Origin: an uncultured Erysipelotrichaceae bacterium
Lineage (GTDB): Bacteria > Bacillota_I > Bacilli_A > Erysipelotrichales > Erysipelotrichaceae
Length of the DNA: 64,000 nucleotides
Assembly: GCA_947569705.1 (NCBI GenBank)
Contig: CANOSP010000011.1
Location: forward strand, 485 to 64,484
Direction: 5' to 3'
The notes beneath the pieces were generated by a model. That model searched no databases, was not told where the DNA came from, and saw only the letters and a list, made by a program, of their open reading frames with translations. This document shows positions 1 to 60,500 of the stretch, in pieces. Within the stretch, counting starts at the first letter, position 1. Each line of letters opens with the position of its first letter. The position numbers were made by a program, and so were the translations under genes.

Positions 1-3000
1 TCCGGTTCATCTCCTTCATCAAATACCATTGTATCATATTGGAAATCTCCATCCACATTTTTATCAGGCTTCCATTCAGTGATTTCTTTAATGTTTTCAT
101 CTGCTTTTCCGTCTCCATCGGTATCCACATTGACATCCGGTTTACCGTCACCGTCACTGTCGATGCTTATATCAGGAATACCATCACCATTACTGTCAAT
201 ATTGATGTCCGGCACATTATCACCGTCTAAATCTATATTGATATCCGGTCTGCCGTCTTCATCTGAATCAATGTTAATAGATGGTTTTATTTCTTTTCCG
301 ACCGAATCATAAGTGAAATTAATTTGTTTATAATCCTTGATCGGTTTCCATGAATGCATTATAGCGATATTCGTCATTGGTTTTTGAGCATCTTTAGAAA
401 TATTGATATGAGGTTTAAAATCACCTTGATTATCAATATTGATATTCGGAATTCCATCATCGTCAGTATCCACATTAATCACTGCTTTTACACTTGTGCC
501 TGTGCAGTATTCCTCAGGGAATCCGTTATCAATATCTTGTTTCACACACTTGGTTGGTTTCCAATCCGTTTTCTTTAGAATCACTAAGTTAAGATCAGGT
601 TTACCATCATGATCGGTGTCGATGTTCAACTCAGGCTTCCCATCCCCGTTACTATCAATATTTAAGTCGGGGATACCATCACCGTCACGATCTCCGTTAA
701 TCACAATCCATTTACTTTCATCGTTTGTATCTTTCCACTTAATGTTTAAATCAGGACAACCGTCACCATCAGGATCATTGAAATCAGGTTTGCCGTCACC
801 ATCCACATCGACATCAATTTTCTTCAGTTCTAGTTCATGACAGCTTTCGGTATTTGTATTACCTGCATTGTCCGTGGCAATAACACAAACTTTATATTTG
901 CCTGTTGTTTCACTGATGGTAATGCTTGCCTTTTCTTTAGTGACACTTAATTTGCCCTCTTTCATCAGTTCTTCACCTGAGCGAGCAACGGTATCCAGCT
1001 TATATACCTTATAGCTGATTTCCTTTGTGCCGCTGACTTTTAGATTATCTTTCGCATCACTTGTGGTAATCTCAAATGCCGTTCCCGGTTTAAAGAAGAT
1101 GCCGCCGCTGATTTTATTAATAATATCCTGTAACTTATTATTCGTATCCTTTGCCTTAATACCTTTTACTTTTGGCGCAGTTTTATCGATCTTGACGAGT
1201 TCTTCTTTTTCCTTAGTGATCGCTCCGCTTTCCTTCTTCATCCAAAAGCTTTGATTTGTTTCGCCTTCTTTGGATACTGTGACTTCATTCGGTTTCCATG
1301 TGCTTTGATCCAGTGACAAGTTGATATATTCGATATGATCGCTGATGATATTTACATCTTGATTCGTCCACTTGCCTGCATAGGCTGTATTGTTTCCGTC
1401 ATTGATTTCTAAATGATACCAATCATCTTCAATCACATCTTCATTCACTATCAATGTTCCGTCTTTATATTTAAAAGTGTAATTCGGATAAGCTCTGTTT
1501 AAGGCGGTTGCGTCTCCCTTGATCGCATATCCCCCTGCTTCACTGCTTGCTTTTGCGGTAGTGCTTAGCTTTATATCATTCTCTTGAATAATATCCTGCG
1601 TTCCGTTCCATGAGACTAATTTAGATCTAAAATCTTGATAGGTCAGAACAGGATTTGCTTCACCTTTTAATCTGTCCTTATTATCAACGATAATTTCAAT
1701 ACTTTTCGGCAGCACTTGTACACTGACGAGTTTACTCAATGGTTTCTCTGAATCGGCAGTTCGCGTTACTTTGATGTTGATGCTGACATTGCCGCTTGCC
1801 TTTAATGCATCAAACTCCGCACTGTTTCCGTTAATCGTTGGGTTCGAAATATATGTGGTATTATCTACTTCAAACTGATACTGCACATTCGTACTGCTTG
1901 AATCATCCTGAAGACTGCTGATAGTGAAGTGATCTCCGTAGATAATTCTTCCCATATTCGTTACCGCCAGTTCACTTTCTTTTGAACCCAGTATGTGTAA
2001 AGTTCCGTCTGCCTCTGCTTTCTCATAATTGCGGTTTCCTTGTTTTAATACATGAAGCTGTATATCCTTGCCTTCTTCTTCCGAATAGCTGTAATGGATT
2101 GTTTTTCCGTCATTCGTATATGCGATATTATTATCAACACTTGTATCAACAGAGATATAATACTTCATATCCGGAACACTTGCTCCGCCCTCATTGCTTG
2201 AAATATCCTGTTCTAAAATAATCGGATCTACGGAACCGTCACCATTTGCCACATAGGTGACTTCTTTGAAGGAGATCGTTTGTTGTGCCTTTGTAATATT
2301 GATCGGCAATTCAATTATTTTATCACTGAAATTGCCGCTTGGATCATGACTTACCGCTTCGACAATCACTCTGCCGATTTGACTCGGAGTCAGTGTCGCG
2401 TTCAGTACAGTCACCGATCCATTCGCATCGACTGCTATTACATCGGTAGGACTTCCCGCTTTTAAACGATACGTTACACTGCTTCCGGTCGGATTTCCTG
2501 CCGTATATAATTGAAAACTCTTGCCTTTCGCATATACTTCACTGTATGCCGCATAAGCATCACCCGTTTTAGTTAATTCATTTCCTGCTTCATCCGTATA
2601 GATGAAATTTTGCGCTCCGGCTGTAACTGTGAATTCCAGTTCTGCGATCGCATTTGCTTGTCCGCTGATTCCTTGCTTTTCGGCAACGATGATTGTTGTT
2701 CCTACTGAATGAATCGTTACTGCGCCGGTACTTTCATTTACTTCTATGATTCCGGTTGAACCACCCTTAATGCGGTACTTCACCGGGTTCGGATTGGTGC
2801 TTCCCTTTACCGTCGCATATACCTTTACGCCTGTATCGGTTAAAGACACACTCTTTTTCGTAATCATATTCACTGCCGCACTTGTTTCATAGAAATACAG
2901 CGGTTCCGCATCAGCTTCCTCTACCTTTACCGTTACCTCTAAATCCTTAGAACTCCAATGATCAGATACAGTTACTGTAAAATGATATTCCCCTACCGAT

Positions 3001-5180
3001 AACTTGCCTTTGGTGGTTATATCACCCGTACTTGCATTCACCGCAAAGAAATTGGCATTTCCTCCGGGTTTCAATCCATAAGTATACTCATAATTACTGC
3101 CGCCGATTGTCGTAGGAGTACCGGGCATACCGGTGATTTTAGCAACCTTACCGTTCATTTGAACATTTGCCTGATTAGCGGTAAAGGTCGGAATCGTATT
3201 ATCCTTAGAACCACTCGCCGGATTTACGACACCGTTTACCTCTTTATAAATAATAATTTCTTTCTTTGTCGTTGCCGGGAGATAGTTATCATTACCGCTG
3301 CTCGGATCATCAGCAGCTGTCGCGCTGATTTCTACCTTACCGAAGTCGCCGTTTCCCTTGTAAGTAATTCTGCCCGTATCAGCATCTATATCAATTAAGC
3401 CAAAATCACCGCCGGTCACCTCATAAGTTATTTTAGGACCCTTTGGATTTGCCGTCGCTGTTTCGCTCCACGCTGTTCCTGCTTCAGCGATTGATTTTGT
3501 CGTTTGTGCTTGATCATCAAAACTTACCGTCAAGTTTGTTTTCGCTACAACAAGTGTAGTGCATACCTTAGAATCAGATGTTTCCGGAACAGGATCTCCG
3601 TACATATCCACCGCAGACACACAAAACTTATGATTTCCTGCTTTTAAGCTGCCGTTGACAACATCAGGTCCGTTACTTTTGATTTTAACATTCAATGATG
3701 TACCGGTAGAAGCACCGCTGCTGTTTAAACCGTCAATTTCAAAGTTTTGATAAGTATTATCACCGTTTGATTCTACTGTATAAGTAAGCGGCATTAAGCC
3801 TTGTCGATTCACGATAATGGTACCTATTGTCTGCCCTGCATTAACATTCTTGCTGAACTCATATTCCTTTCCGCTGCTCGCACCACTTTGCGGCTGCTTG
3901 GTATAAGTCAATTTATGAGATTCTATAATCTCTAACGGCATAATGTTAGAAATCGCAGAGCTTTCCACAGGCAGTTGTGAAGAAGCTTCATATTCTTCAT
4001 TGATAACAGCTAATTGATACTTTCCGACAGCCACTCCTGTGAGATCTAACGAATATTCATTCAATCCGCTTTTCGTCAAATCACCTAACTTATAATACTT
4101 TATCTCTGTGGCAGCTTCATTGTATAAAAGAATGGATAATCTTGTATTAGTTCCTGTATTTGCATCAACCGATAAAGTAATTGTACTGTCTTTCACTACC
4201 TTTTGTGTTGTCTGTGCTTTATATTTGATATTATTCAAACTTGCCGTTAAATTAGAAACAATTCTTAATTTATTAGGATTCAGTTCATTTTTTAAATTCA
4301 AATTCACCGTATCAACTTCATAGCTATGCCAATTACCGTCTGTATAAGAAGTGTTAGCCGCAAAATTAATTTTAGTACGATCGATTGTTGCGAAAGGTCT
4401 CAGACCTAATGTATTAATAGTAGCCTGATTTTGCGGCCAACGCTTTGCCGCAATACTGTCTATCATATTTGTAACAGAATTTAAAACCTCACCGGTATCT
4501 AACACGGTCATGTTCCCTCTGTCAGCATTGCCGACAGAATTTCCGATATTCACTTGTCGTATATTGAAATAACCATTTTTCGTAGAGTCATCAGCGGAAT
4601 TTGGAAATCTTCCCGCACCGTCCAGCCAATAGCCAAAATCATTTTGATTCGTATCTTTATAGGCACGATCATTGGTAGTTAAGCCGAGTGTACCGCCGTT
4701 CATGACAGCACCGACGGTCGGTAAAAACGGAGCTAAATTCAAAATAGGAGTTTCTTTTGAAGTAAGTTGAATTTTAGCAACTTCTTCCTTAAGCGGTGTA
4801 ACAGGACAATAAGGGATATAATAAATATTTTTATTAAAATACTTCAAGCAATATTTTTCACGCATTGCCGGATCTGTTTGAATGGTCGTTGATATTTTAT
4901 TAGGGTTATTACTTTCGTCATCCTCTTTTGATAAAATCGCCATATTAGTAATCGGCTTACTGCTCATAATCACATAATCATCTGTGTCTTTACCAATATC
5001 CCATATGATTTCATTACCGTTATATTCACCCAGGACTATTTTTTGCCCGCTTTGAAGATTAAAGGACGGTGCAGACTGTGCATGTAAAGTAGCCACCACT
5101 CCGATATTATTTACATACATATATGTTATCAATACAGTGCCTAATAAGAACAAAGAGGTCGCTAATATCTTTTTCCACAT
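1..5180 (-). CDS. Giant surface/adhesin-like protein, paralog 1 (runs off the left edge; absent from the ORF track)
   Basis: Manual translation from ATG 5180 (RBS AAAGGA): MWKKILATSLFLLGTVLITYMYVNN... signal/TM segment, DUF6273-like head (LGEYNGNEIIWDIG...YWL...GLRPFATID), Ig/cadherin-like and MBG-like stalk, DxDGDG repeats. The frame at position 3 (..DGDFQYDTMVFDEGDEP) matches the 5180 start and the C-terminal region of 7320-13457. Not every codon was checked. Confidence 0.85.
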   Translation of the reverse strand, partial: MWKKILATSLFLLGTVLITYMYVNNIGVVATLHAQSAPSFNLQSGQKIVLGEYNGNEIIWDIGKDTDDYVIMSSKPITNMAILSKEDDESNNPNKISTTIQTDPAMREKYCLKYFNKNIYYIPYCPVTPLKEEVAKIQLTSKETPILNLAPFLPTVGAVMNGGTLGLTTNDRAYKDTNQNDFGYWLDGAGRFPNSADDSTKNGYFNIRQVNIGNSVGNADRGNMTVLDTGEVLNSVTNMIDSIAAKRWPQNQATINTLGLRPFATIDRTKINFAANTSYTDGNWHSYEVDTVNLNLKNELNPNKLRIVSNLTASLNNIKYKAQTTQKVVKDSTITLSVDANTGTNTRLSILLYNEAATEIKYYKLGDLTKSGLNEYSLDLTGVAVGKYQLAVINEEYEASSQLPVESSAISNIMPLEIIESHKLTYTKQPQSGASSGKEYEFSKNVNAGQTIGTIIVNRQGLMPLTYTVESNGDNTYQNFEIDGLNSSGASTGTSLNVKIKSNGPDVVNGSLKAGNHKFCVSAVDMYGDPVPETSDSKVCTTLVVAKTNLTVSFDDQAQTTKSIAEAGTAWSETATANPKGPKITYEVTGGDFGLIDIDADTGRITYKGNGDFGKVEISATAADDPSSGNDNYLPATTKKEIIIYKEVNGVVNPASGSKDNTIPTFTANQANVQMNGKVAKITGMPGTPTTIGGSNYEYTYGLKPGGNANFFAVNASTGDITTKGKLSVGEYHFTVTVSDHWSSKDLEVTVKVEEADAEPLYFYETSAAVNMITKKSVSLTDTGVKVYATVKGSTNPNPVKYRIKGGSTGIIEVNESTGAVTIHSVGTTIIVAEKQGISGQANAIAELEFTVTAGAQNFIYTDEAGNELTKTGDAYAAYSEVYAKGKSFQLYTAGNPTGSSVTYRLKAGSPTDVIAVDANGSVTVLNATLTPSQIGRVIVEAVSHDPSGNFSDKIIELPINITKAQQTISFKEVTYVANGDGSVDPIILEQDISSNEGGASVPDMKYYISVDTSVDNNIAYTNDGKTIHYSYSEEEGKDIQLHVLKQGNRNYEKAEADGTLHILGSKESELAVTNMGRIIYGDHFTISSLQDDSSSTNVQYQFEVDNTTYISNPTINGNSAEFDALKASGNVSINIKVTRTADSEKPLSKLVSVQVLPKSIEIIVDNKDRLKGEANPVLTYQDFRSKLVSWNGTQDIIQENDIKLSTTAKASSEAGGYAIKGDATALNRAYPNYTFKYKDGTLIVNEDVIEDDWYHLEINDGNNTAYAGKWTNQDVNIISDHIEYINLSLDQSTWKPNEVTVSKEGETNQSFWMKKESGAITKEKEELVKIDKTAPKVKGIKAKDTNNKLQDIINKISGGIFFKPGTAFEITTSDAKDNLKVSGTKEISYKVYKLDTVARSGEELMKEGKLSVTKEKASITISETTGKYKVCVIATDNAGNTNTESCHELELKKIDVDVDGDGKPDFNDPDGDGCPDLNIKWKDTNDESKWIVINGDRDGDGIPDLNIDSNGDGKPELNIDTDHDGKPDLNLVILKKTDWKPTKCVKQDIDNGFPEEYCTGTSVKAVINVDTDDDGIPNINIDNQGDFKPHINISKDAQKPMTNIAIMHSWKPIKDYKQINFTYDSVGKEIKPSINIDSDEDGRPDINIDLDGDNVPDINIDSNGDGIPDISIDSDGDGKPDVNVDTDGDGKADENIKEITEWKPDKNVDGDFQYDTMVFDEGDEP

Positions 5181-5445
5181 ATCACTCATATCCTTTCTAT
5201 CAAATATTTATATAAATAAAGTTAAAGTATAAGCAGCTTCCCATTTGCTGCTTTACAATTTCTGTATATACAAAACATAAAACCCATAAAATCATAAACA
5301 AAAAAAGCGGTGTTATACGGTTATAACATATACTCTTCCACCCAAACGACGATATCAAATTCAAAAAGGATTAAAAATATACAAAAAAAATATCAATTTT
5401 TTAGAACATCAAAATCAACCCAAATAAAACTGTTTTTCGGCCGCA

Positions 5446-6492
5446 TCAAAGCTGATTGAAACTGTTCTCTACAAGCTCTTTAAAAGGCATATTCCAATAA
5501 TAAGTATAAAGCAGTTCATAATACGTTCCACCGTATTGCTTTAAGGAATCATGAACCGCAAAAAGTTGGTTCAGCTGTTCTTGACTCAGCTTTTTAATGT
5601 CATCTTCACAATGCGCATAATTTAATAAAATTTCATAAGCTTCTCTCGGAGTATGAATCGGTATATTCTCAAAATATAAATCTGAAAATAATGCTTTACC
5701 GTCAATACGTTCTTGATCAGAACGATAATTCTCAGTTAATTGATAACCTCCGTACAAAGTACCTCCGCACATTAATACAATCATTGCGATTTTCACATAG
5801 GGCAGTGCATAAGAAAACATATGCAATGGATAAGAAAACCACGTTTGATAAGAAACCGGCGCCAGTGAGGCACATGCCGTTACTAACAGTGCTTCTATAG
5901 AAGATGCTCTGAAAGACAGTTTAATATCATTTTCCTTTTCGTATTGCTCAATCGCTTCTTTGAGATATTTTTTGCCGTAAAGCAATCGACTTTTCACTGT
6001 TCCCAAAGGGCAATGAAGCAATTCGGAAATTTCTTTATTATTTAACTGAACAAAGAAATATAAAATCAGCACTTCTCGATACTGCGGTTTTAACTCTAAC
6101 AAGCATCTTTGAAGAATCTGCATATCCGTAGAATAATGATTCATATATTCAGGACAATATTCCATTCGATCTTCTGTTTCATTGCTTAATATTTCAAGCT
6201 GAGAATCACTCATTTGCTGATCTCTTTTTCTTCTTAGCATTGTTATGGTTTTAGAATGTGCAATTTTTCCGATCCAAGCTTTAAACTGCGTCGGATCTTT
6301 TAACGCTGATATTGATCGCTGTACCTGTACAAAAGTTTCCTGTACTATTTCTTCCGCATCCGCATGATTTTTTGTCAGTTGAAAAGCAATATAATAAACC
6401 AGACGACGATAACGGTTGTATAGTTCATTAAAAGCTGTTTCATCATTTTCCTGTAAACGAAGGACCAGTTGCGTCAGTGTTGATTTTTTCAT
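5446..6492 (-). CDS. ECF-type RNA polymerase sigma factor with C-terminal TM segment and extra domain
   Basis: Region 2 (AFNELYNRY..DAEEIVQETFVQV..FKAWI..IA) and region 4 (YREVLILYFF..LNNKEISELLHCPLGTVKSRL). Hydrophobic IAMIVLMCGGTLYGGY follows. Start set at ATG 6492 after AAAGGA (ORF track start 6507). Confidence 0.9.
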   Translation of the reverse strand: MKKSTLTQLVLRLQENDETAFNELYNRYRRLVYYIAFQLTKNHADAEEIVQETFVQVQRSISALKDPTQFKAWIGKIAHSKTITMLRRKRDQQMSDSQLEILSNETEDRMEYCPEYMNHYSTDMQILQRCLLELKPQYREVLILYFFVQLNNKEISELLHCPLGTVKSRLLYGKKYLKEAIEQYEKENDIKLSFRASSIEALLVTACASLAPVSYQTWFSYPLHMFSYALPYVKIAMIVLMCGGTLYGGYQLTENYRSDQERIDGKALFSDLYFENIPIHTPREAYEILLNYAHCEDDIKKLSQEQLNQLFAVHDSLKQYGGTYYELLYTYYWNMPFKELVENSFNQL

Positions 6493-6650
6493 ACAAATTC
6501 CTTTCATAACAATTTACTTTATTTTAAAATAACATTTTTATCATTTTTTGTAAATATGTAAATTCTGTAAGAATAATAGAAATCCTCTGAAAAACTGTAA
6601 AACAAATAAAAAAATTTGCTTTTTACAAAACAACATGTGATTTTAAATTT

Positions 6651-6676
6651 AAAAAAAACAGAGATAGTTCCCTGTT
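6651..6676 (-). terminator. Intrinsic terminator after 6688-7200
   Basis: AACAGGGA-ACTA-TCTCTGTT followed by a T run on the minus strand. Confidence 0.65.
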
Positions 6677-6687
6677 AAAATGTAAAA

Positions 6688-7200
6688 TTAATCCGCGATA
6701 TTTTTTATTTTTGTATCATGACGAAGACTCGTCATCATATGAGTAATACCGATATATGCCGTTGCGTCGATTATGATTGCTTTTTTACTTGCTTTGGGAT
6801 GGATTTTCCACAGTGCGACAACCTTACGATTTCCTTCCTTAAAAAGAAAGTGTTTCTTAACCTCTACGATCGCATTAATATCATCATAAGCAAGCCGTTT
6901 TTTACGCATATTTAAGAATGTGTAATCGATTAAACCGTATTCGTAAAATTCAATTTTGTCAAGCAAAGTAGATAATTGAAATAAAGCAAGAAACGCAAAA
7001 ACAAGAAGCAGTATAACTGCAATCACATCCTCTGATACTTCAATTGATAAAAAGATGGCAACGATAAAGATTATCATAACAATTGTAAAAATTATCGGCA
7101 TCATTTTTTTACTTTCCCCAACCATCTTTAAGGAACCGAAATCTTGATCTGTTCCGCTGATTCCATCTTGTTGAGTAGACAGTTTTCTTTTATATTCCAT
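6688..7200 (-). CDS. Hypothetical membrane protein (2 TM plus soluble C-terminal domain)
   Basis: 170 aa ORF with RBS GAGGT and two hydrophobic stretches. Confidence 0.7.
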   Translation of the reverse strand: MEYKRKLSTQQDGISGTDQDFGSLKMVGESKKMMPIIFTIVMIIFIVAIFLSIEVSEDVIAVILLLVFAFLALFQLSTLLDKIEFYEYGLIDYTFLNMRKKRLAYDDINAIVEVKKHFLFKEGNRKVVALWKIHPKASKKAIIIDATAYIGITHMMTSLRHDTKIKNIAD

Positions 7201-7292
7201 AAGTTAAACCTCATTTCTCTAATAGTTTATCATTTTTCAGCGTAAGTATCAATGATGAGACTGAATGATGTTAAAACATTTACAAACAAGCG

Positions 7293-7317
7293 AAAAAGAG
7301 CGGAGCTTAATCCGCCC
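7293..7317 (-). terminator. Intrinsic terminator after surface protein 2
   Basis: GGGCGGA-TTAAGC-TCCGCTC-TTTTT just after the stop codon. Confidence 0.7.
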
Positions 7318-7319
7318 TG

Positions 7320-10300
7320 TTATTCAGATAAATGACTTGTTTTTCTTTTGTATAACAGATAGAAAGTGATTCCAAACGAGAATAAACACAGACCGCTGTA
7401 CATCATTAAATTAGTTGCGTCACCTGTATTTGCTCCGCCCATGCTTGTAACGGGATTATACATGCCTTTTACGGATGTATCGAGTTTATCCGCTTGAGGT
7501 TCATCGTTCTTAGGCACAGTAGGATCATTTGGTTCTTCCGGTTCTTCAGGGTTTTCAGGATCTTCCGGTTCATTAGGTTCACTGAAATCCATAATATCAT
7601 ACGGATAATCTCCTTGAATGGTTTTGTTTGGTTTCCACTCTGTTATTTCTTGGATATTATCTTCCGGGACACCGTCACCGTCCTTGTCAATATTAATATC
7701 CGCAACGCCGTCTCCGTCACTATCGATATTAGTGTTAGGAATTCCGTCGTCATCCGTATCAATATTAAGATCAGGGATACCATCTCCGTCTATATCTACA
7801 TTCACATCAGGAAAGCCGTTGCCGTCAGTGTCAATATTCCAAACCGGCTTGATTTTTTCCGTATCGTAGAGGAATTTATTTGATGTATAATCCTGATTTG
7901 GTTTCCATGTATCATGTTCCGCTACATTTAACATAAAGCCGACTTTTTGGATATTAATATCCGGCTTCATATCGCCGTCGGTATCGATATCAATATCAGG
8001 AATTCTATCCCCATCGGTGTCAATGTTGATTAATGGTTTTACACTTGTACCGGTACAGTATTCTTCTAAGATTCCGTTATCAACATCTTGTTTCACACAC
8101 TTGGTCGGTTTCCAATCTGATTTTTTAAGAATCACTAAATTAAGATCAGGTTTGCCGTCATTGTCTGTATCAATATTCAAGTCAGGTTTCCCATCCCCGT
8201 CACTGTCAATATTCAAGTCAGGGATACCATCATAATCTCTGTCACCGTTAATCACAGTCCATTTCTTTGTATCATTTGGATCTTTCCACTTGATATTTAG
8301 ATCAGGACATCCATCACCATCCGGATCATTGAAATCAGGCTTACCGTCACCGTCCACATCGACATCGATCTTTTTGATGTTTAGGTCTGAGCACTTTTCT
8401 TCGGATTCATTCGTCGCATTGTCTATCGTTGTTGCACACACTCGATAGTTTCCGATATTGTTAATCTTGAAGCTCAGTATCTTATTCGTTCCCGGTTTTG
8501 CACTCTTTTCTTCTATCGGTGTTGTGCTTGTCATCATGCCTTGCGCATCTAATTCATAGACCTGATAGCTGACTTCCTTGACTTCACTCACCTTTACCGT
8601 TGCTCTTGTGTTTGGCTGAGGATCTTCTGTTTTGATCTCTACCTGCACTCCCGGTTTAAAGTAATGTCCTAAGGTGATTTCATTTAAGATATTGGATACT
8701 CCGTCTTGATTTACAGGATAGCCTGTGATACTTACAATCTTCGGTTTCATCATATCTATCTTTACATGATCTTGAAGCTTTTCACTGATCGCTCCTTTAT
8801 GCAAACTTGTACCGCTCGGATCGATTCTGAAGTAGATGTCTGTTTCATTGTCATCTTCTTTGTTTATTGTAAAGCGCTGCTTGTTCGCATTCGTAAATGT
8901 CACTGTATCTGATATTTGGTCATACACTCCTGCACTTGCCGTGGTGTTCGCTGTATCAATCACTACATCGACTAGATAGTTATGCCACTTATCTGATGTT
9001 ACTGTATTTCCGTCCGGATCCTCTAAATGATACCAACTGTCACTTGGTTCATCTTGTTTGATTGTCAAGCTTCCTGATTCAAGCTTGATTTCATAATGCT
9101 TCGTATTTCCGTTCAATTCATTTGTGCCATAGCTTCCGCTGATGTCATACTTTCCTGTTGTTTTTGTATCTTTAATTGCTTTGCCGTTTTGTTTTGCACT
9201 TGTATTCTTAGGAATCGGAAAATCATTCATACTGTCAGTAAATGCAAATGCATTCGTACTAGGCTGTTTGAATTTGTATGTCGGGAAGGCTTCTCCCACA
9301 TAGATTTCTTCATCCTCATAGGTTAAGGTGATTGGTTTCTTTTTTACAATGATAATCTGTTCTCCATAGTCTCCGCCGATCGCATTACAATCATCCACTG
9401 CCGGATCAAATGCATCCTTTGTCTGACATACCTTTATGATTACCTGTCCGCTTCCGATTGCCGTTATCGGCTGACTTGTTTTCGTATTCACCGCTGCCGT
9501 ATTAACATCAAGTATACTTGTATCATCGACATAGAAATACACAGGTACTCCATTCTTATAGCCACTTGTTATTTTTGCCTCTATGTTTGTATCTCCATAG
9601 GTCATGCCGGGGGCATACAGATTTAAACTTGTCGGCGGTCGATCTGTTGTTTCCAATATCGTTGTGGCTTGTTTACTGTTATAGTTTCGATCCTCAGGGG
9701 ATGTGGCTGTTAAGGTTGCGGTACCTGCTTTCCCTAAGGTTTTGAAGCTTTGATCTTGTCCGCTGATCGGTGGTTGTGCTTCGGCAATCGTATTATCACT
9801 GCTTGATAACAATACATCTCCCTGACTCAGCTTGCCGTTATAGGTTGGCTGGATCGTTGCCGGTGTTTTCCCAATCGTCCATTTCGGTGTATTCACAAAG
9901 GCAAAGTCCTTTTGTTCTGCTTTTTCAATGACGATCTTCGCATAGATGCATTGTGCCGCATAACCGTCATGTGCATTCATACATGCTTTTACATATGCAT
10001 CGCCGCCGTTTCCGTAATCTCCGTCCGGATCACTGGCATTGATGATATTGAAATGATTCAAGTTATTATGATCAATCACATCTTCATCTACACTGATTCC
10101 TGTTGATTCAGCGATCGTTACTTCGCTGTATGTGGAATCAATATTCGTCTTTACATCGATTGTTCCGTTTTGTTCATACGTCTTTTTATACACCGGTACA
10201 TTCTTTGTTCCATACGTATCGCTGAGTGCCAACTTCGTTCCTGCGATAGGATCAATAAAGTAGAAATCTGCCTGTGCATCCACTATCACAATAATCACAT

Positions 10301-13300
10301 CAACTGTTCTTGTGTTTTTATTATTATCAGTCACATCAACTTGAATATAATACTTATTCCCTGTACCGTGATTGCTTAAATCATTTGCGGTAATGTCCTG
10401 ATTCAGTGTGATATATCCGGTTGAGGTTACGGTAAAGAGGCTTGCGTCAGCATTTTGATTCCCGTTGTTCGTACTTTTCTTATAAGTGCTTCCCGAAACA
10501 CTGACTTGTGCCATTGCGGTTCCTTGTTTTGCCGTTCCGCCGTTTGGATCGGCACTTGTATTCAGTGCTTTCTTTAAAGTCGCATCAGGTGTATAAGTGA
10601 CTCCTGTGGTACCGCCGTTTTCAATACTTCCTGTCACCTCAATATTGCCCGGCACATACACTTGAATCACTCTGCCTGTTTGCGTTGTGGCTGTTTCATA
10701 GTTATCATCACCGTTTAAGGTTCCGGTTAATGTCGCACTTCCCGCATCACTCGCGTTGCTTGTCGGACATACCTGCCCTTGTGCGTTGATTGTAAAAGGT
10801 GCATTCAAACTCGTATTGCTTGAAGTATATTGAATCGTTTCGCCGCTTTTTGAATACGTTGAAGTAACACTTGCCGGTACACTCACACAGGCACCGCCCA
10901 CCGCTAGCTTTAACATACTTGTATCAGGAAATGCGATTGTCTGCGGATATTTATTAACATTTACAATCAAATCAGTATCTACTCCTGTTGTACCGTAAAT
11001 ACCACCGGTAATATGTGCTTTGATTTTCACATTGTTTAAAGTATTGGAATCACTTGCCTTCTTCACTGTCGCCTGGACAGTACTTGAACCGGAAATACTG
11101 ATTACATCATTGGGATCCGGATTCAATGAATAGGTAATCACGGTATTCGTTAATGCCCCGTTCGTTGTTTCGATCAGCTTAGTATTAAAGGTACCGCCGT
11201 TGTTTGGCTCTCCGCTTGGATCATACGTTATCGTATACGTATTGCCCGGGATAATACTTCCTGATTTTTGCGGTTCTTCCCAACCGACTCCTGATAGAGA
11301 TGCCGCTTGAATCGTAATCGTTTTCGTAGCTGTTGTTGTTTGTTTGTTCGGTGAAGTACTATCCTTTACTTCAACCACAATCGTATAGCTACCCGGTGTT
11401 AAACCGTTCGCACCGACACTTGTATTAACATACACATTGCCGTTAGAATCAACGTGGAAGGACCCATTATTACCCTGACCGCTCGGAAGCGTATAGGTAA
11501 ACGGTGCCGTACCGCCGCTCACATCAATATGAGCGATCTTATTTGCGGAAGTATAACTTGTCGGTGGCTTAGCCGCACTGCTTCCCGCAGTAATATTAGT
11601 TTTATCCTCCACATAGTTCGCTGTAATACCTAATTGGAATGTGATTGTTTTAGTTGTAGTAGCTGCTTCATAATTATCTGTCGCATCAACCTTTGCCTGA
11701 ATCACAACACTTCCCGTCGCATTCGCCGCAAATACAATATCGGCATTATCACCTGCATTTGATGAAGTAAACGGCAAACCGCTTGATATGATGTTTCCGT
11801 TTCCTGACACAAAGGAATATTCAATCTTAACATCATTATTAGCTAAATCATTATTTGTATGAGTCGCATGTTCACTGTGGGTTGTTGTACCGGTGGTGCT
11901 GCCTGAAACATAAGTCGTTCCTTTATCATCTTGATCAAAAATAATTGTCGGTTGCGTCTTGGCAACATCAAATGTGGTACAAACCCTTGAGTTACTCGTT
12001 GCAGGATCCGGGTCTTTGTACGCATCCTTTGCGGCAATACAAAATTTATAAGTCCCTGCTTTTAACCCGCCGTTCACTAAATCAGGCGCATTGCTTTTTA
12101 TTTTTATATCCAGTGACGTACTGCCTGATGAATCATTTGCATCCAAACCGTCAATCTCAAAATTTTGATGCGTATTGTCACCGTTCGACTCTATTGTATA
12201 AGTAAGAGGCATAACACCTTTCGGACTTACATCGATCATCCCGACTTTTTGTCCTGCATTCACATTCTTACTGAATTCATAATCCCCTGCCGTCGCTCCG
12301 CTTTGCGGATCCTTCGTATAAGCTAATTTATGCGGCTCTACAATCTCGATTCCCATCATTTGCGAAATCGGTGAGGACTTTGCGGCTCTGCCGGTAGATG
12401 CATCAAAATGCTCATTTGCGACAGCTATTTTATATTTCCCTACCGGTATTCCCGTTAAATCAAACTCTTTGGTATTTAAGGCTTTATAATAAAGCAGCTG
12501 ATTTCCCGCATCGTTAAACACAAAAACGGATAATGTATCATTGGCAGTTGCATCTAATTGAATTTTGGCATTTTTAACTACTTGTTTATCTGCAATAGAA
12601 TTCCCTTTATATTGCATATCACTAAAAGTAACTTGATAGCTTGGATCCGCATATCTGATTTTCAGTACTCCGCTTCGCGGATTACTTTTTAATACATTTT
12701 TTCCGATCGTATGATCCAATGCATAAAGTATATTAGGACTTTTTAAATGCGAAAAAACCGAAAGTTCAAGATTTTGCCACTCTTTCCCTATATACGCCCA
12801 TTCATAAGAAATATACGCCGGATAAGCTGTCGCATTGGTTGACGAAGACGAATACGCTTGCACAACCGAACTGTCCCTTCTGAAATATGCACTTTGCCAT
12901 GCTTTGTTATGCTTAATATATGCCTTCTCCGATATAATACATACCTCAGGCAAATCATCCAATCCAAGACTTCCCGAAGTAAAATCATCGATTCCGGGAA
13001 CATAACCATGTTGTAAATTACCCACTTTACCTGAAACTGCCAATACTTCCGTACTCTCAAATTCATTACCCGATAAACTAGCTGTATAAGCGTCATCATA
13101 GGATTTCGCCGTAAGGTATCCTTGCGAATGTGATTTTCCTGCCACATCGGTATAAAAATCACACATATCTATTTCGCCGCCTTTTCTCGGTACCGTATTA
13201 TTCGTATTACTGTTACAGTTTTGTACTGTTCCTATATAATGATGCATAGCATAATACCCGGTATTGTTTTTACTAACGGTCCAAACCGATTCTTCACCGC

Positions 13301-13457
13301 TCTCATTTGTTCCGACAATCACTTGTTCGCCCGGCTCTAAAACCTCTAAATTTCCGGCAGCAGACAGATTATTGTTATATTGAAGCACTGTAAAAGATGC
13401 GGAGAAAATTCCGATAGTCAGAAACAATAATAAGATCATTTTATTTCGCATATACAT
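7320..13457 (-). CDS. Giant cell-wall-anchored adhesin-like protein, paralog 2 (2045 aa)
   Basis: N-terminal signal/TM, variable head, Ig/cadherin-like repeats, MBG-like domain (KKKPITLTYED..ESGSLTI), many DxDGDGxPD Ca-binding-like repeats, EPxxPE linker, GANTGD + TM + basic tail sorting signal. Confidence 0.9.
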   Translation of the reverse strand: MYMRNKMILLLFLTIGIFSASFTVLQYNNNLSAAGNLEVLEPGEQVIVGTNESGEESVWTVSKNNTGYYAMHHYIGTVQNCNSNTNNTVPRKGGEIDMCDFYTDVAGKSHSQGYLTAKSYDDAYTASLSGNEFESTEVLAVSGKVGNLQHGYVPGIDDFTSGSLGLDDLPEVCIISEKAYIKHNKAWQSAYFRRDSSVVQAYSSSSTNATAYPAYISYEWAYIGKEWQNLELSVFSHLKSPNILYALDHTIGKNVLKSNPRSGVLKIRYADPSYQVTFSDMQYKGNSIADKQVVKNAKIQLDATANDTLSVFVFNDAGNQLLYYKALNTKEFDLTGIPVGKYKIAVANEHFDASTGRAAKSSPISQMMGIEIVEPHKLAYTKDPQSGATAGDYEFSKNVNAGQKVGMIDVSPKGVMPLTYTIESNGDNTHQNFEIDGLDANDSSGSTSLDIKIKSNAPDLVNGGLKAGTYKFCIAAKDAYKDPDPATSNSRVCTTFDVAKTQPTIIFDQDDKGTTYVSGSTTGTTTHSEHATHTNNDLANNDVKIEYSFVSGNGNIISSGLPFTSSNAGDNADIVFAANATGSVVIQAKVDATDNYEAATTTKTITFQLGITANYVEDKTNITAGSSAAKPPTSYTSANKIAHIDVSGGTAPFTYTLPSGQGNNGSFHVDSNGNVYVNTSVGANGLTPGSYTIVVEVKDSTSPNKQTTTATKTITIQAASLSGVGWEEPQKSGSIIPGNTYTITYDPSGEPNNGGTFNTKLIETTNGALTNTVITYSLNPDPNDVISISGSSTVQATVKKASDSNTLNNVKIKAHITGGIYGTTGVDTDLIVNVNKYPQTIAFPDTSMLKLAVGGACVSVPASVTSTYSKSGETIQYTSSNTSLNAPFTINAQGQVCPTSNASDAGSATLTGTLNGDDNYETATTQTGRVIQVYVPGNIEVTGSIENGGTTGVTYTPDATLKKALNTSADPNGGTAKQGTAMAQVSVSGSTYKKSTNNGNQNADASLFTVTSTGYITLNQDITANDLSNHGTGNKYYIQVDVTDNNKNTRTVDVIIVIVDAQADFYFIDPIAGTKLALSDTYGTKNVPVYKKTYEQNGTIDVKTNIDSTYSEVTIAESTGISVDEDVIDHNNLNHFNIINASDPDGDYGNGGDAYVKACMNAHDGYAAQCIYAKIVIEKAEQKDFAFVNTPKWTIGKTPATIQPTYNGKLSQGDVLLSSSDNTIAEAQPPISGQDQSFKTLGKAGTATLTATSPEDRNYNSKQATTILETTDRPPTSLNLYAPGMTYGDTNIEAKITSGYKNGVPVYFYVDDTSILDVNTAAVNTKTSQPITAIGSGQVIIKVCQTKDAFDPAVDDCNAIGGDYGEQIIIVKKKPITLTYEDEEIYVGEAFPTYKFKQPSTNAFAFTDSMNDFPIPKNTSAKQNGKAIKDTKTTGKYDISGSYGTNELNGNTKHYEIKLESGSLTIKQDEPSDSWYHLEDPDGNTVTSDKWHNYLVDVVIDTANTTASAGVYDQISDTVTFTNANKQRFTINKEDDNETDIYFRIDPSGTSLHKGAISEKLQDHVKIDMMKPKIVSITGYPVNQDGVSNILNEITLGHYFKPGVQVEIKTEDPQPNTRATVKVSEVKEVSYQVYELDAQGMMTSTTPIEEKSAKPGTNKILSFKINNIGNYRVCATTIDNATNESEEKCSDLNIKKIDVDVDGDGKPDFNDPDGDGCPDLNIKWKDPNDTKKWTVINGDRDYDGIPDLNIDSDGDGKPDLNIDTDNDGKPDLNLVILKKSDWKPTKCVKQDVDNGILEEYCTGTSVKPLINIDTDGDRIPDIDIDTDGDMKPDINIQKVGFMLNVAEHDTWKPNQDYTSNKFLYDTEKIKPVWNIDTDGNGFPDVNVDIDGDGIPDLNIDTDDDGIPNTNIDSDGDGVADINIDKDGDGVPEDNIQEITEWKPNKTIQGDYPYDIMDFSEPNEPEDPENPEEPEEPNDPTVPKNDEPQADKLDTSVKGMYNPVTSMGGANTGDATNLMMYSGLCLFSFGITFYLLYKRKTSHLSE

Positions 13458-13762
13458 CTTCCTTCCTCAAGTATGAAAAATCGGACTTTAGATACAGAAG
13501 CCCATATCAAAGAATCATAATCTATGGCTATTAACAGAAACATATATTTTAATATTTATAAGAAAAACAATGATATTAAAATATACCGCTAATACATATG
13601 AATGCCTTGGTATTTCCAAACCAACCAATTCGTACAAAGAAATCATTTCGATAAATAACCTCTTTTTGGGCGTATATGATTGAACATGTATATGAAAAAA
13701 CTGTTTTATTTACACATGATCCTTCAAATTTTCTCATTGTACAATACACGCAGGCTACACAC

Positions 13763-13792
13763 TAGACACACAAGGATCCGAAAACGTGCGCT
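13763..13792 (-). promoter_or_regulatory. Putative ECF sigma promoter upstream of surface protein 2
   Basis: Minus strand AGCGCACGTTTTC-GGATCCTTGTGT-GTCTA; 25/30 identical, with no gaps, to 14995-15024. Confidence 0.65.
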
Positions 13793-13878
13793 AAATATTA
13801 AAATATTTTCATTTATCAGTAAAAAACAAATGCGATGATATAAACTTTTATCAATATAAAATATGCAACAGAAAAGCT

Positions 13879-14871
13879 TCAGCGCTTTGCTTCCTCATAA
13901 GCCTGAATCCATCCGTCTTTATTTAACAGGTCGTAAAAGGGAGAATTATTTTGTCTCAGTTGTTTTACATACGGCAAAAGTTCATCTAACGCTGCTTGAT
14001 TCAACGCATTCAGTTCCTCAGAACAATGTGCCTTTTTTCTGATGATAAAATATGCATCTTGATCGGTGATCTCATGTCTGTATTCCTCATCTAAGACAAC
14101 ACCCTGATTCCATTGATAAAAAGAATATGTACTGACACCGAGAACTGCCGCAAAGCATAACGCCGCAATGCCGGATAACTGAATAGACGCACTGCGCTTA
14201 AAAAACGACAGTTTGCCTAAATTCCATTCGCAAGGCTTGGGGGCTTTACAATGAAAAGCATATAAAAGCAATAGTCCTGTAGGAAAACAGTAAAAAGATA
14301 GTTTTTCATGATGTTGAGATTCATATAAATGAATTTGCTTGCGCAATAACTGCTTACCGGTACGCAGTCTGCTCTTTACCGTTCCTTCCGGTATATCTAA
14401 AACTTTCGCAATCTCACTCATTTTAGCGTCATCATAATACTTTAAAATCAAGGTTTCGCGATAAATATACGGTATATTATCCAACAGCTTTAATACAATA
14501 TCCGCATTACTTTGCTTACGCACGATCACAGAAGGCAGTGAATCTTCACGATCATCGGCGATATCCAATGCCGCCAATGCATGTTCTTCCATATAAATTT
14601 CACGATTCTTACGAAACATATTCTTACAGCGATTGATTAAAATCTGCTTCATCCATACAATCACTACATCCGGATTCTTAAGATGAATAATATTTTGTTT
14701 GATATTAATAAAAGTATCCTGAACAACATCTTGTGCATCTGCTTCATTTTTTGTGAGCTTTAAAGCCATATAATAAAAGGCAGTATAAAAATCATGATAT
14801 AATTTCGCAAATGCTTCCTCATTACCGGTTTGAATTTCTCTGATAAGCTGCGGTAAATCTTCACGCTTCAT
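13879..14871 (-). CDS. ECF-type sigma factor with C-terminal TM segment and extra domain (paralog of 5446-6492)
   Basis: AFAKLYHDF..DAQDVVQDTF (region 2), YRETLILKYY..MSEIAKVLDIPEGTVKSRL (region 4), TM IAALCFAAVLGVSTYSFY. Start set at ATG 14871 after AAAGGAG (ORF track start 14895). Confidence 0.9.
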   Translation of the reverse strand: MKREDLPQLIREIQTGNEEAFAKLYHDFYTAFYYMALKLTKNEADAQDVVQDTFINIKQNIIHLKNPDVVIVWMKQILINRCKNMFRKNREIYMEEHALAALDIADDREDSLPSVIVRKQSNADIVLKLLDNIPYIYRETLILKYYDDAKMSEIAKVLDIPEGTVKSRLRTGKQLLRKQIHLYESQHHEKLSFYCFPTGLLLLYAFHCKAPKPCEWNLGKLSFFKRSASIQLSGIAALCFAAVLGVSTYSFYQWNQGVVLDEEYRHEITDQDAYFIIRKKAHCSEELNALNQAALDELLPYVKQLRQNNSPFYDLLNKDGWIQAYEEAKR

Positions 14872-14994
14872 GATTATTACTCCTTTATCTTTCATATATA
14901 TTAAATTATTACATAAACAAACATTTTTATCAATAAATTATCATAATATTTTTTAATTTGCATTTTCTTAAAATGATAAAAAGTGATCATTAAA

Positions 14995-15024
14995 TAGACA
15001 CATAAAGAATAGAAAACGTGCGCT
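14995..15024 (-). promoter_or_regulatory. Putative ECF autoregulatory promoter upstream of the sigma gene
   Basis: Minus strand AGCGCACGTTTTC-TATTCTTTATGT-GTCTA; same motif and spacing as 13763-13792. Confidence 0.65.
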
Positions 15025-57581: not shown

Positions 57582-60500
57582 TTAATTGTTTTCTTGTCTT
57601 TTACGTGTTACATATGCTGCAGAACCGACTAACAGTAACATCGTCCAAAGAATTGCCGTTCCGCTTTGTTCCGTCTTCGTTCCGGTATTCTTAATCGGAG
57701 AATTCGGTTTGATATTTTCACTCGGAACAGAAGCTGCCGTTGATACGATTGCATAATAAGAATTATGCGTTGTTTTAAATTTAATCGTATCGTTTTCAAT
57801 CCAGCTCGGAATAAATCTAATGTCACCGGAATCAGAGATATAAACAACTCTTAAATCTTTACCAAGCATCTCTTTATCGATTTTTATGCTCATAACCATT
57901 TGAACTGTACGATTGAATTCAACTTGCTCACCTTTACCGTTTACAAAATAAATATCAATCAATTTTTCAAAGTTATATTGCTTCAAGAAAGTCTTATCTT
58001 TGATTTTAGCACCCAACTGTTTCAGCATTTCTTGGTCAAAATGTTTAACAGCCAGTTTAATATCATCATCTAATTCAACATCCGTCACAACCGTTACATC
58101 ATCTTTGACAAAGACATTGTTACCCTGATCAGGTTTACTTGGTTCATCATGATTGTTTGGCTGATCCGGTTGATCAGGTTTATTCGGTTGATCCGGATTA
58201 TTTGGTTGATCAGGTTTATTCGGCTGATCCGGATTGTCCGGATTATCCGGTTGATCAGGATCATCAGGATTTGGTTTTTCATAGTTTTCCAATTTCTGAG
58301 CTGCCTTAACCAATGCATCTTTAGCTGCGTCAGCTTCGTCCTGTATTGCTTCACTGTCCTTATTTACCTGTTCTGCTTTCGTATATGCTTGCTTGAATGC
58401 ATCTGCTATATCCTTAGGATAATCCGCTAATTCTTTCAGTAAATACGCATACTTATTCATTGCTTGTTGTAACGCTGTTTTATCAGCAGTCTTAACTAAT
58501 GCGTTTTTCGCATCATTAATCATTTGAACCGCTTCCTCAACATCTGTCTTGGTTGCGTCTTCATCTGCCATTACAGCTTCACCGCTCGCAATCGCATCCT
58601 GTAAAGCCTGATAGCTTACCTTTGTGTAACCTTCTGCTTTAATAGCGCTTGCATCTTCAATCGCTTTTGCTAAAGCTAATTTATCAACCTTTTCTTTCAG
58701 AATATCCATTGCATTATTCAATGCTTCAACAGTAGCTTGAACATTCGCTTCTGTTGCGAATTCATCTTCGCTTACTTCTTTTGCATAATCTAACAACTCA
58801 CAGAATTCATTCCAGCTTTCATCAGTGTAATTACCCTGCTCCACTTGATCAAGTTCACTGATTAACTGATTTAATTCACTCTTATCCACTGATTGAGAAT
58901 CAATATCGGTTAATTTGATGTGATCTAACCAATGACTTCCGGCAGGGATACTGCTTACAAGATTGAACAGATACAGCTTACCTAAATCCTGAGGTGCAGC
59001 CACACGATAAGCATAATCTTTACCGATGCAGACTTCTGTTTCACCCGGCGGAGTTACGTATACACTGTAAGTAGACTTGCTCAAATCTACAGCGAAGCGT
59101 ACATGATAAGAGGTGTTTGGTTCATAAGTCAAGTCACTTTGTACAAAACCGACTGCCTTACCATTTACTTGGTTACCGTTATATGCACCGAATTTTCCAT
59201 CCTTGTACATACGCATCAGCATTGGAATTTGTGTATAAGAGGTATGATTTGAATCATAGGCCCCCAAACCAACCGGAATATCAACGATTCCTGTATCCTC
59301 AGTTGTTGTAACCATATCAAATTCTACATTTACCTTATCGGAAGTATTCTTACCGATTTGTCTTTGAGCGGTAGTTGCACCTGTAGTATCCGGAGACAAT
59401 GCAAGAAGTGCATCGATAGAAGGTCTTGGATTATCATCAAACGGCGCATATACCTCAAATTCATAAATACTTCCGCTATATACTTTATTGTTTCCGGAAT
59501 GTTTCCATCTTTCTTTTTGTACGTATTTTACATAACGCGCATCAACAGGCTCAATACTGATTTTCTCAATTGCAGGCACACCTGCAGCGGCAATTACCTG
59601 AGCATCATTTTTACGATAAACAGGTGTGAAGTTTTGTCCGTCAGTTGATACTTGAATTTCATATTTACCTACCTTGGATTCATAGTTGATTACAAGATCA
59701 CCGATATTGTATACATCACCGAGATCAACCAACAGCCATTGCTCATCTTGATCCTTCGCAAAGGATACACGAGAATCACTGCTGACAATACCGTCCACAG
59801 CCATTTCCGCAGTAAATTGTCCGTTATTTAATTCTAATCCTGATACACTGACAGTTTTCTTCAACGCTAAATTCTCTCTGACAATGCCCATCTTTTCCAA
59901 TACTTCATCCGCACTCAATGCACGATTATAAACAGACATTTTAGAAAGCGTACCTTTTGTATTTTCAAATACCTTTTCCACCGGCAATACAAATGTAGAA
60001 CTTTGCTGAGTTTTACCGGCAATCGTCGTATTAGTCAGCTTACCGTTTCCGATTTGCTTACCGTCAACATACAATGTCAGATTTTTATTATCACATACTA
60101 ATGCAAGTGCTATTTCCTTATCTGTTTTCGGTGTATAGTTGAAAGTAAATTCATACTGATCTCTTGCATAGCTTAACTTACCGAGCTTATTCACATAGAA
60201 TGTTCCGTCAGCTCCCGCAAACAGCGTTGCGTTATCAGTCAATTCATCTAACGTCAAATTCATAAATACAGAGTAAGGATAACCAATGCTGTCCATCGGC
60301 AAAGACAGATAGCCGGTACCGTCGAATTTCACTGCACCGTCAGCTGCAGAAGCCTTTGTCAAGCTTGCATCATAGCCGTTTGTACTATTGTCCTTAACTG
60401 TTGTTCCGTTTTCCTCAAAATCATATTCAGCAATTAAATCCGTATCAGATTCTACATAACGTCCCGGATTTGCATTCGGTACCTTATTTTGCAGCGCATC

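Follow-up and report, generated by a model that had tools for sequence, protein, structure and literature searches.

Fusions of an extracytoplasmic function (ECF) sigma factor to a transmembrane sensor are rare, and only two of them, IutY and SCO4117, have been studied. IutY of Pseudomonas putida (group ECF243) combines an ECF core, a single transmembrane helix and an extracytoplasmic domain, has no separate anti-sigma gene and is activated by regulated proteolysis (by Prc, then by RseP), its truncated form being constitutively active (PMC8999054). In the actinobacterial groups ECF52, ECF53 and ECF48 (SCO4117, for example), a C-terminal extension contains one or two transmembrane helices and an outer sensory domain, and proteolytic activation has been proposed (PMC8999054). 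Here we describe a Firmicute version of this arrangement in a 64,000-nt stretch of DNA from an uncultured Erysipelotrichaceae bacterium (GenBank assembly GCA_947569705.1, contig CANOSP010000011.1, positions 485 to 64,484 of the forward strand; hereafter, the window), which corresponds to contig C11 of a 2.13-Mb, 57-contig assembly. The window contains two of approximately 25 autonomous cassettes, each comprising an anchored ECF-type sigma factor, a private promoter and one giant gene. Gut metagenomes of mice and rats, drawn from 13 studies, contain DNA of this bacterium, and literature searches for the present system in Erysipelotrichaceae returned no description of it.

As in IutY, the sigma core, transmembrane helix and outer domain lie in one chain, and a separate anti-sigma gene is absent. 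IutY, however, has a FecR-type anti-sigma and periplasmic domain, belongs to Gram-negative TonB-dependent cell-surface signaling and is not known to have expanded into many paralogs, whereas the proteins described here have no detectable anti-sigma domain, a new outer domain, 25 paralogs in one genome and giant, probably wall-anchored targets. The ECF52, ECF53 and ECF48 proteins come from a different phylum, have extensions of up to ∼400 aa with a zinc-finger anti-sigma domain (SCO4117 also has a carbohydrate-binding domain) and show no one-to-one link to adhesin genes.

Dozens of ECF sigma/anti-sigma pairs are found in Bacteroides, each beside the polysaccharide utilization locus that it controls, and the present family is similar in having many ECF paralogs that each adjoin a presumed target. 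In Bacteroides, sigma and anti-sigma are separate proteins that operate with a SusC-type outer-membrane transducer in a Gram-negative envelope. The layout of the private promoters resembles that recognized by Bacillus subtilis SigW (TGAAAC, N16, CGTA), but SigW itself is a soluble protein of 187 aa that is held by a separate anti-sigma, RsiW. The one-chain arrangement of a cytoplasmic DNA-directed domain, one transmembrane helix and an outer sensor is also that of ToxR, CadC and TcpP, which are winged-helix activators that work without release, in contrast to the sigma-type proteins considered here. In the SigI/RsgI systems, a single-pass membrane protein with an extracellular sensor is combined with a distinct promoter specificity and with control of genes for cell-surface machinery; SigI is not an ECF factor, RsgI is a separate anti-sigma with carbohydrate-binding domains, and the regulons comprise several enzymes. 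In common with them, the present family has many paralogs within a single Firmicute genome, each combining a putative outer sensor with a promoter of its own, but its sigmas are of the ECF type, the putative sensor is fused and there is one adjacent presumed target gene for each. One report describes multiple SigI/RsgI pairs in a single genome of the Firmicute Clostridium thermocellum (PMC10575876). A single-transmembrane extension like that of the present sigmas is not mentioned for any Firmicute group in the available text of the ECF Hub classification 2.0 paper (PMC7826278). Judged by its predicted architecture, the family would work like the IutY and ECF52 fusions yet falls outside them: a search for the anti-sigma domain that defines those fusions gave no match, the outer domain is new and none of the named models fits the core. 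Because it combines a new outer domain with the lack of a recognizable anti-sigma domain, this Firmicute version bears directly on how a tethered sigma stays silent and is then released.

Sigma factors with a transmembrane helix and an outer domain

Five genes occupy positions 1–14895 of the window, all on the minus strand, in the order sigma-1, giant-1, P0003, sigma-2 and giant-2. The elements of the two sigma–giant modules are listed below, with all promoters being predictions.

13879..14871, minus strand: sigma-1 (P0001); open reading frame (ORF) open from 14895 (338 aa), likely true start at 14871
7320..13457, minus strand: giant-1 (P0004), 2045 aa
5446..6492, minus strand: sigma-2 (P0002); ORF open from 6507 (353 aa), likely true start at 6492
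1..5180, minus strand: giant-2 (P0005); ORF 3–5189, 1729 aa in the window, C-terminus beyond the window, 1801 aa in the genome
13763..13791, minus strand: private ECF-type promoter of giant-1; two exact motif matches in the window, 0 in 100 shuffles
14995..15023, minus strand: second copy of the private ECF-type promoter of module 1 (GCGCACGTTTTC-N10-GTGTCTA), ∼124 nt upstream of the sigma-1 start
5347..5374, minus strand: private ECF-type promoter of giant-2 (TTAATCC...ATATCGTCG), unique in the window and in the genome
14905..14933, minus strand: candidate housekeeping-type promoter of sigma-1 (TTGATA-17-TG-AATAAT), 10/12 matches
6573..6601, minus strand: candidate housekeeping-type promoter of sigma-2 (TTTACA-17-TATTAT)

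The original prediction for this DNA had described the sigma-to-giant order as occurring twice on the minus strand with no separate anti-sigma gene, and both modules were recovered at these positions, with no ORF capable of encoding an anti-sigma between sigma-1 and giant-1 or between sigma-2 and giant-2. It had also placed the sigma starts at 14871 and 6492; the internal ATG codons there are preceded by good ribosome-binding sites (AAAGGAG before the ATG at 14871 and AAAGGAA before that at 6492) and are therefore probably the true starts. The two sigmas align with each other end to end, extension included, at 31% identity. Both contain the Pfam domains Sigma70_r2 (PF04542) and r4_2 (PF08281) within residues ∼30–190, and no Pfam match was obtained beyond residue ∼190 at E-values up to 0.01. 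Scores for TIGR02937 were 73 and 97 bits (cut-off 42.9). With only sigma2 and sigma4 present and the family model passed, the two proteins classify by sequence as ECF (group 4) sigma-70 factors. Every equivalog or subfamily score against the named NCBIfam sigma models (SigW, SigY, SigV, SigM, SigX; TIGR02954) was below its cut-off. The best values were 104.6 bits for TIGR02954 (cut-off 188.5) and 108 bits for PRK12513 (cut-off 206), and with the two SigW models P0001 and P0002 reached 88 and 91 bits, respectively, against a cut-off of 209, and 75 and 78 bits against one of 243. The nearest solved relative of the core is B. subtilis SigW (E-value 7e-18), which covers residues 14–186 only.

Alignments of the 25 paralogs and of 43 homologs revealed a shared layout. 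The conserved core, which includes the invariant W78 and a G-T-V-K-S-R-L recognition helix (W78, G169, T170, K172, S173 and R174 are invariant across the 43 homologs), is followed by a conserved Y-E-x5-K-L-x-F motif, a weakly hydrophobic stretch and then one strongly hydrophobic helix. A polar linker of 10–60 residues leads from this helix to an outer domain of ∼75 residues, and the linker between sigma4 and the membrane has ∼45 residues. In sigma-1 (ORF numbering for both proteins), the sigma2/sigma4 core spans residues ∼12–190, the transmembrane helix ∼236–254 (nt ∼14134–14190) and the outer helical domain ∼272–338 (nt ∼13882–14082). The corresponding segments of sigma-2 are residues ∼10–190, ∼235–255 (nt ∼5743–5805) and 277–352 (nt ∼5449–5679), with a low-confidence helix at residues 201–214. 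The main hydrophobic segment has a mean Kyte-Doolittle value over 19 residues (KD19) of 1.9 and reaches at least 1.6 in 57 of 60 proteins, and the stretch that precedes it averages 1.09. In the same 60 proteins, the flanks of the helix carry on average 1.93 K/R residues on the N-terminal side versus 0.80 on the C-terminal side, and 0.33 versus 1.87 D/E residues. A single strong hydrophobic segment with positive-inside flank charges thus predicts one membrane pass, with the N-terminal sigma inside the cell and the C-terminal domain outside. This bears out the fused layout proposed at the outset, which comprised a sigma core, one transmembrane helix and a small helical domain. Between orthologs, identity is 74% in the sigma core, 60% in the outer domain and 38% in the linker and transmembrane helix; the respective values between paralogs are 37%, 29% and 17%. 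Orthologs of sigma-1 are present in five genomes of the genus, at 54–73% identity.

The outer domain is new and previously undescribed. Aromatic and aliphatic residues make up most of what is conserved in it (AY, L, W/F-A, Y, LK, YY, L, GW and FE), and AlphaFold2 confidently predicts a β-hairpin plus five helices (predicted local distance difference test (pLDDT) 88.8, predicted template modeling score (pTM) 0.79). No Pfam family corresponds to it, and fold searches returned no convincing relative: the best Foldseek E-values were 2.6 against the PDB and 1.1 against AlphaFold DB clusters, and a wide VIA-align search (best Z 5.2) and the ESM Atlas (template modeling scores of 0.54 at most) produced weak, generic helical matches. 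A feature search of the protein atlas with this domain yielded no usable match. A hidden Markov model of the domain found 146 matches in 1.84 billion protein representatives; nearly all are proteins of 315–387 aa that terminate in the domain, and the others are fragments. Since all matches are of this one layout or pieces of it, the domain exists only in this architecture among these representatives. With a single query, the extension was detected in 9/9 genomes of the genus (10–20 matches each), in 0/16 other genera of the family and in 0/16 genomes from two other families of the order.

A conserved AHC triplet in this domain had been suggested to bind metal or to sense redox state. The motifs quoted for the window sigmas (REAYEILLNYAHCEDD and QDAYFIIRKKAHCSEE) are indeed present, but the triplet is not conserved in the family, as it is complete in only 8/25 paralogs and 25/130 representatives. 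Position by position, A occurs in 19/25, H in 9/25 and C in 15/25 paralogs, and in five of the 25 the outer domain lacks Cys entirely. Because H and C vary and a fifth of the paralogs lack Cys in this domain, a general role as a metal or redox sensor is not supported. Complex prediction for the transmembrane and outer domains of sigma-1 with the last 116 residues of giant-1 gave a score of 0.00 and no verdict, a result that speaks neither in favor of binding nor against it.

Sigma–giant pairs and their promoters

A search of all ORFs in the 2.13-Mb genome identified 25 sigma paralogs of 325–383 aa with identical layout and intact reading frames, and just two short ECF-like sigmas besides them. 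Behind 23 of them, the same strand carries an ORF that is 1700 aa or longer or that is cut off by the contig end, and behind the other two lie remnants of a truncated giant C-terminus, so every sigma has a giant-family gene or its remnant downstream on the same strand (25/25). In the two remnant cassettes (G000 contigs C15:79-848 and C39:80-1051), short or frame-broken pieces of the giant C-terminus lie behind an intact sigma; these cassettes lost most of the giant gene and kept the sigma. Among 30 related loci, the pairing is seen in 25, and the remaining five are cut by contig ends. Counted from the giants, the genome has ∼33 giant-family N-termini, 22–23 of them with a sigma directly upstream; others comprise four second giants in tandem, five without a sigma and two at contig edges. 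Giants and sigmas together amount to at least 150 kb, or at least 7% of the assembled genome, so their regulation probably shapes the attachment of this commensal to mucosa or to partner organisms in the mouse gut. Many contigs end inside giant genes, which means that the family is under-assembled here and under-counted in short-read genomes.

Between each sigma stop and the following giant, behind an A/T-rich tract, lies a predicted promoter of ECF layout, 4–235 nt past the sigma stop in every module (TGAAACC-N17-CGTC and GCGCAC-N18-GTCTA are examples). The sites fit the pattern of an AAC-type −35 and a CGT/GTC-type −10 that are 16–18 nt apart and near a sigma gene. When 30 related loci and five sigma-1 orthologs were sorted into orthogroups, the −35 and −10 blocks proved to be kept within an orthogroup while spacer and flanks diverge, and to differ between orthogroups (nine orthogroups). 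This conservation holds at sigma identities of 50–60%. The predicted blocks are as follows.

Orthogroup sigma-1: −35 GCGCACGTT; −10 GTGTCTA
Orthogroup sigma-2: −35 TTAATC(C/T); −10 ATATCGTC
Orthogroup C32: −35 TGAAACCGAT; −10 CGTC(T/A)GATTGAT
Orthogroup C8: −35 TGACCC; −10 GTGTATCTCA
Orthogroup C10: −35 variable; −10 GCATCCAGT

In module 1, the predicted promoter of giant-1 begins 87 nt past the stop codon of sigma-1, and ∼305 nt separate its end from the start of giant-1, a distance that implies a long 5′ untranslated region. The blocks GCGCACGTT and GTGTCTA occur at the equivalent place in six genomes with differing spacers. In module 2, the predicted promoter begins 72 nt past the sigma-2 stop, and its blocks are kept at three related loci (L001, L002 and L003) whose sigmas are 49–73% identical. 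No 36-nt promoter segment recurs in the genome except that of module 1, which has its second copy at 14995–15023. Located ahead of the sigma gene, this copy is a putative autoregulatory promoter of sigma-1; the two closest genomes (G002 and G005) have kept it in front of the orthologous sigma. Only in module 1 do the stretch ahead of the sigma gene and the sigma–giant intergenic region clearly have a motif in common.

The sigma genes themselves mostly have a TTGACA-17-TATNAT site 40–60 nt before the start codon. Housekeeping-type sites with at least 10/12 matches were found at 40 of 55 loci (6.9 in shuffles), and those with at least 11/12 matches at 16 loci (0.4 in shuffles). The two sigma genes of the window carry weaker sites of this type, and within the window alone the counts were not above those of shuffled AT-rich DNA, the signal emerging only across the family.

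Several further features of these intergenic regions were observed. An A/T-rich tract (AAAAAWTTT...ATATTTTT) is common to most modules, 15–25 nt upstream of the −35 blocks (for example at window positions 13792–13815 and 5375–5395), and could be an UP-like element or the site of a shared regulator. A dyad, AAATT-N15..19-CTTT, is present in 15/49 intergenic regions (3 expected). Furthermore, a perfect AT-only inverted repeat of 15 nt (13544–13558 and 13792–13806), longer than any in shuffles, brackets a 233-bp segment that holds the module 1 promoter. An invertible promoter was considered as a mechanism for the family and rejected, as five orthologous loci lack the repeat and the contigs showed no inverted form.

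The giants encoded downstream are built from constant and variable parts. Giant-1 has a signal/anchor at its N-terminus, where ∼280 aa are specific to the paralog. A conserved domain (residues 280–520) and a variable middle come next, and the C-terminal ∼700 aa, which are conserved and carry DxDGDGxPD-type repeats, end in a putative sorting signal (GGANTGD, a hydrophobic stretch and KRK). Giant-2, which contains Cadherin and MBG_2 Pfam domains, shares ∼43% identity with giant-1 over two regions, the N-proximal domain and the final ∼700 residues. All 22 complete giant C-termini have the form SVKG-x-YNP-x-TS-IGGA[NLM]TGD, ∼20 hydrophobic residues and a basic K/R tail, which is not the canonical LPXTG signal, and two sortases are encoded in the genome. 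The giants are probably wall-anchored, with a conserved repeat stalk and variable N-terminal and middle parts, and the term adhesin is suggested by their Cadherin, PKD and MBG matches. Between paralogs, identity in the N-proximal conserved domain rises to as much as 81%, whereas that of the paired sigmas stays at or below 42%. The relationships of sigmas and giants are mismatched (Mantel r 0.10, p 0.23; nearest neighbors agree in 0/18 cases), and co-duplication of sigma and giant is therefore unsupported. This mismatch suggests that the giants exchange segments by recombination or gene conversion, while the sigma/promoter ‘addresses’ are old and distinct. The contigs of two RNA libraries from mouse gut are joined across 138 nt (46 codons) at 12284–12423, within the N-terminal portion of giant-1, and one DNA run has loose ends there; the stretch looks like an in-frame length variant between strains.

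Proposed control of the anchored sigma factors

The original prediction held that each sigma is dedicated to one adhesin. We consider it highly probable that each module indeed consists of a dedicated sigma, a private promoter and the neighboring giant, because the linkage is complete (25/25), the ECF-type promoters between the two genes are orthogroup-specific and, module 1 apart, each is unique in the genome. The count of sigma–adhesin pairs extends the pairing from the window to the whole genome, with 23 sigmas followed by a large giant ORF and two by remnants. Use of the private promoters by the neighboring sigmas is what these sequence relationships point to. If this is correct, this 2.1-Mb genome contains an unusually clean natural set of orthogonal sigma/promoter pairs, in which each of 25 ECF sigmas has a private promoter and one neighboring target; such a set would be useful for synthetic biology and for the study of how promoter specificity diverges.

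The control of such a sigma would be mainly post-translational, because most sigma genes have housekeeping-type promoters, autoregulation is exceptional and the extra domain is placed outside the cell. Read from a housekeeping-type promoter, the protein would be made continuously, inserted into the membrane and kept inactive or only weakly active while anchored. A cue at the outer domain could lead to a cleavage outside the membrane and then, by analogy with the described fusions, to an intramembrane cut by a protease of the RseP/RasP type. The freed core would guide RNA polymerase to the matching promoter a few dozen bases past its own stop and thereby turn on the giant gene; in module 1, where the same promoter also precedes the sigma gene, a positive feedback would result. 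Proteolytic release is favored over other modes because proteolytic activation is reported for IutY and SCO4117 and the genome encodes an RseP/RasP-like M50 protease, but as a specific step we rate it at slightly less than an even chance. The mechanism as a whole, in which dedicated anchored sigmas under post-translational control are released by proteolysis and each activates one sortase-anchored giant, appears on balance moderately probable.

Several observations weigh against this mechanism. Its main weakness is that Pfam searches found no recognizable anti-sigma domain, either of the zinc-finger (ZAS) or of the FecR type, between sigma4 and the transmembrane helix. A single helix (residues 201–214) is predicted in the ∼45-residue linker, where the pLDDT of the full-length model is only ∼50; a very short, unconventional inhibitory segment may lie there. 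M50 proteases are universal, so the presence of one says little. The sigma4 recognition helix is near-invariant among the paralogs although the −35 blocks differ, few positions (80, 83, 89, 150 and 180) are candidate specificity determinants, and cross-talk between modules may occur. Five giant-family genes have no upstream sigma. Finally, contigs from RNA libraries of a related strain cover sigma-1 (13710–14841), positions 6531–8115 and parts of giant-2, but they indicate the presence of sequence only, without starts, strand or level and with DNA carry-over possible, and regions that they leave uncovered carry no meaning.

The lack of a detectable anti-sigma domain also fits with a sigma that is active while anchored and uncleaved, as ToxR and CadC are, and that acts mainly in cis on the adjoining promoter. 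Co-transcriptional membrane insertion would leave such a sigma beside its own gene and place the transcription of a 5–6-kb gene for a secreted protein at the membrane, and the outer domain would modulate activity through a conformational change or oligomerization. The absolute adjacency of the genes, the location of the promoter within 4–235 nt of the sigma stop in every module and the ∼45-residue linker from sigma4 to the membrane would all suit this arrangement. Positional specificity would also help to separate 25 paralogs with a near-invariant sigma4 helix, but the private −35 and −10 blocks already provide specificity through sequence. Moreover, the two experimentally studied fusions of a sigma to a transmembrane segment are reported to be active after cleavage (PMC8999054), and a literature search returned no sigma factor described as working membrane-bound. 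We regard activity in the anchored state as unlikely.

In a somewhat less probable explanation, the sigmas would be bistable or stochastic switches of a surface-variation system, in which a cell displays one or a few of ∼30 interchangeable giants and the outer domain reports on the adhesin of its own cassette (whether it is secreted, for instance, or processed by sortase) and not on an external ligand. A precedent for such sensing is found in Streptococcus gordonii, in which the peptide that remains in the membrane after sortase action is detected by an intramembrane sensor kinase. Giants that swap segments under stable regulatory addresses would be expected to produce the observed pattern, with identities of up to 81% for giants and up to 42% for sigmas and mismatched relationships. 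The N-terminal and middle parts of the giants are paralog-specific. The module 1 promoter, present also before the sigma gene and kept there in three genomes, would provide the positive feedback of a switch; however, autoregulation is clear in one orthogroup only, and no conserved invertible element exists, the 15-nt inverted repeat being missing from orthologs. The two preceding ideas can be merged, so that ∼25 mutually orthogonal anchored sigma/promoter pairs would run an adhesin-choice program, either in cis while anchored or upon release when the outer or transmembrane part senses the state of the own adhesin (secretion, sortase processing or load), so that a cell would settle on certain giants while the adhesin genes keep recombining; this combination likewise seems rather improbable. 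The proposal that the proteins are decayed or repurposed membrane proteins and no longer sigmas, with adjacency as a legacy of tandem duplication and the giants expressed from ordinary promoters or by read-through (for which the absence of a predicted terminator between sigma and giant in both window modules would leave room), is very unlikely, because the core is the most conserved part (74% between orthologs) with invariant DNA- and core-binding residues, 25/25 reading frames are intact, promoter blocks are kept within orthogroups at 50–60% sigma identity while spacers have diverged, and sigmas and giants have no common duplication history.

Neighboring genes and other elements

Between the two modules lies a further gene, and both it and giant-1 are followed by predicted terminators.

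6688..7200, minus strand: P0003, a 170-aa protein with two hydrophobic stretches and a terminator of its own at 6657–6676
7297..7318, minus strand: intrinsic-terminator-like hairpin directly 3′ of the giant-1 stop, 8 pairs followed by a T run

P0003 is a single-copy membrane protein with a weak resemblance to DUF6560. It is found directly upstream of sigma-2 orthologs in 7/9 genomes of the genus and is absent from all other modules; it is a syntenic neighbor of module 2 only and stands outside the cassette family. The possibility that it is a hidden anti-sigma was rejected, because only one copy exists, the other modules lack a paralog of it and the gene is followed by its own terminator. An Rfam scan of the window matched no RNA family.

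An element of ∼110 nt that contains ATTGAAATATATGYTTCTGAAT and a hairpin resembling a bidirectional terminator is present in nine copies in G000 (C2:143427, C3:136967, C4:96199, C15:28, C24:7895, C26:22145, C28:1182, C38:3169 and C39:28), none of them in the window. It occurs in either orientation, in the 5′ leaders of giants or just past giant stops, and two copies are at contig ends.

One of the five giants without an upstream sigma begins within the window, where its N-terminus is encoded at 62968–63999 on the plus strand, and its leader resembles that of a giant on contig C33 (start at 13456). The gene is divergent from one on the minus strand (57582–62774) for a 1730-aa surface GH20 hexosaminidase with F5/8 type C and FIVAR domains, and this neighbor suggests host-glycan foraging.

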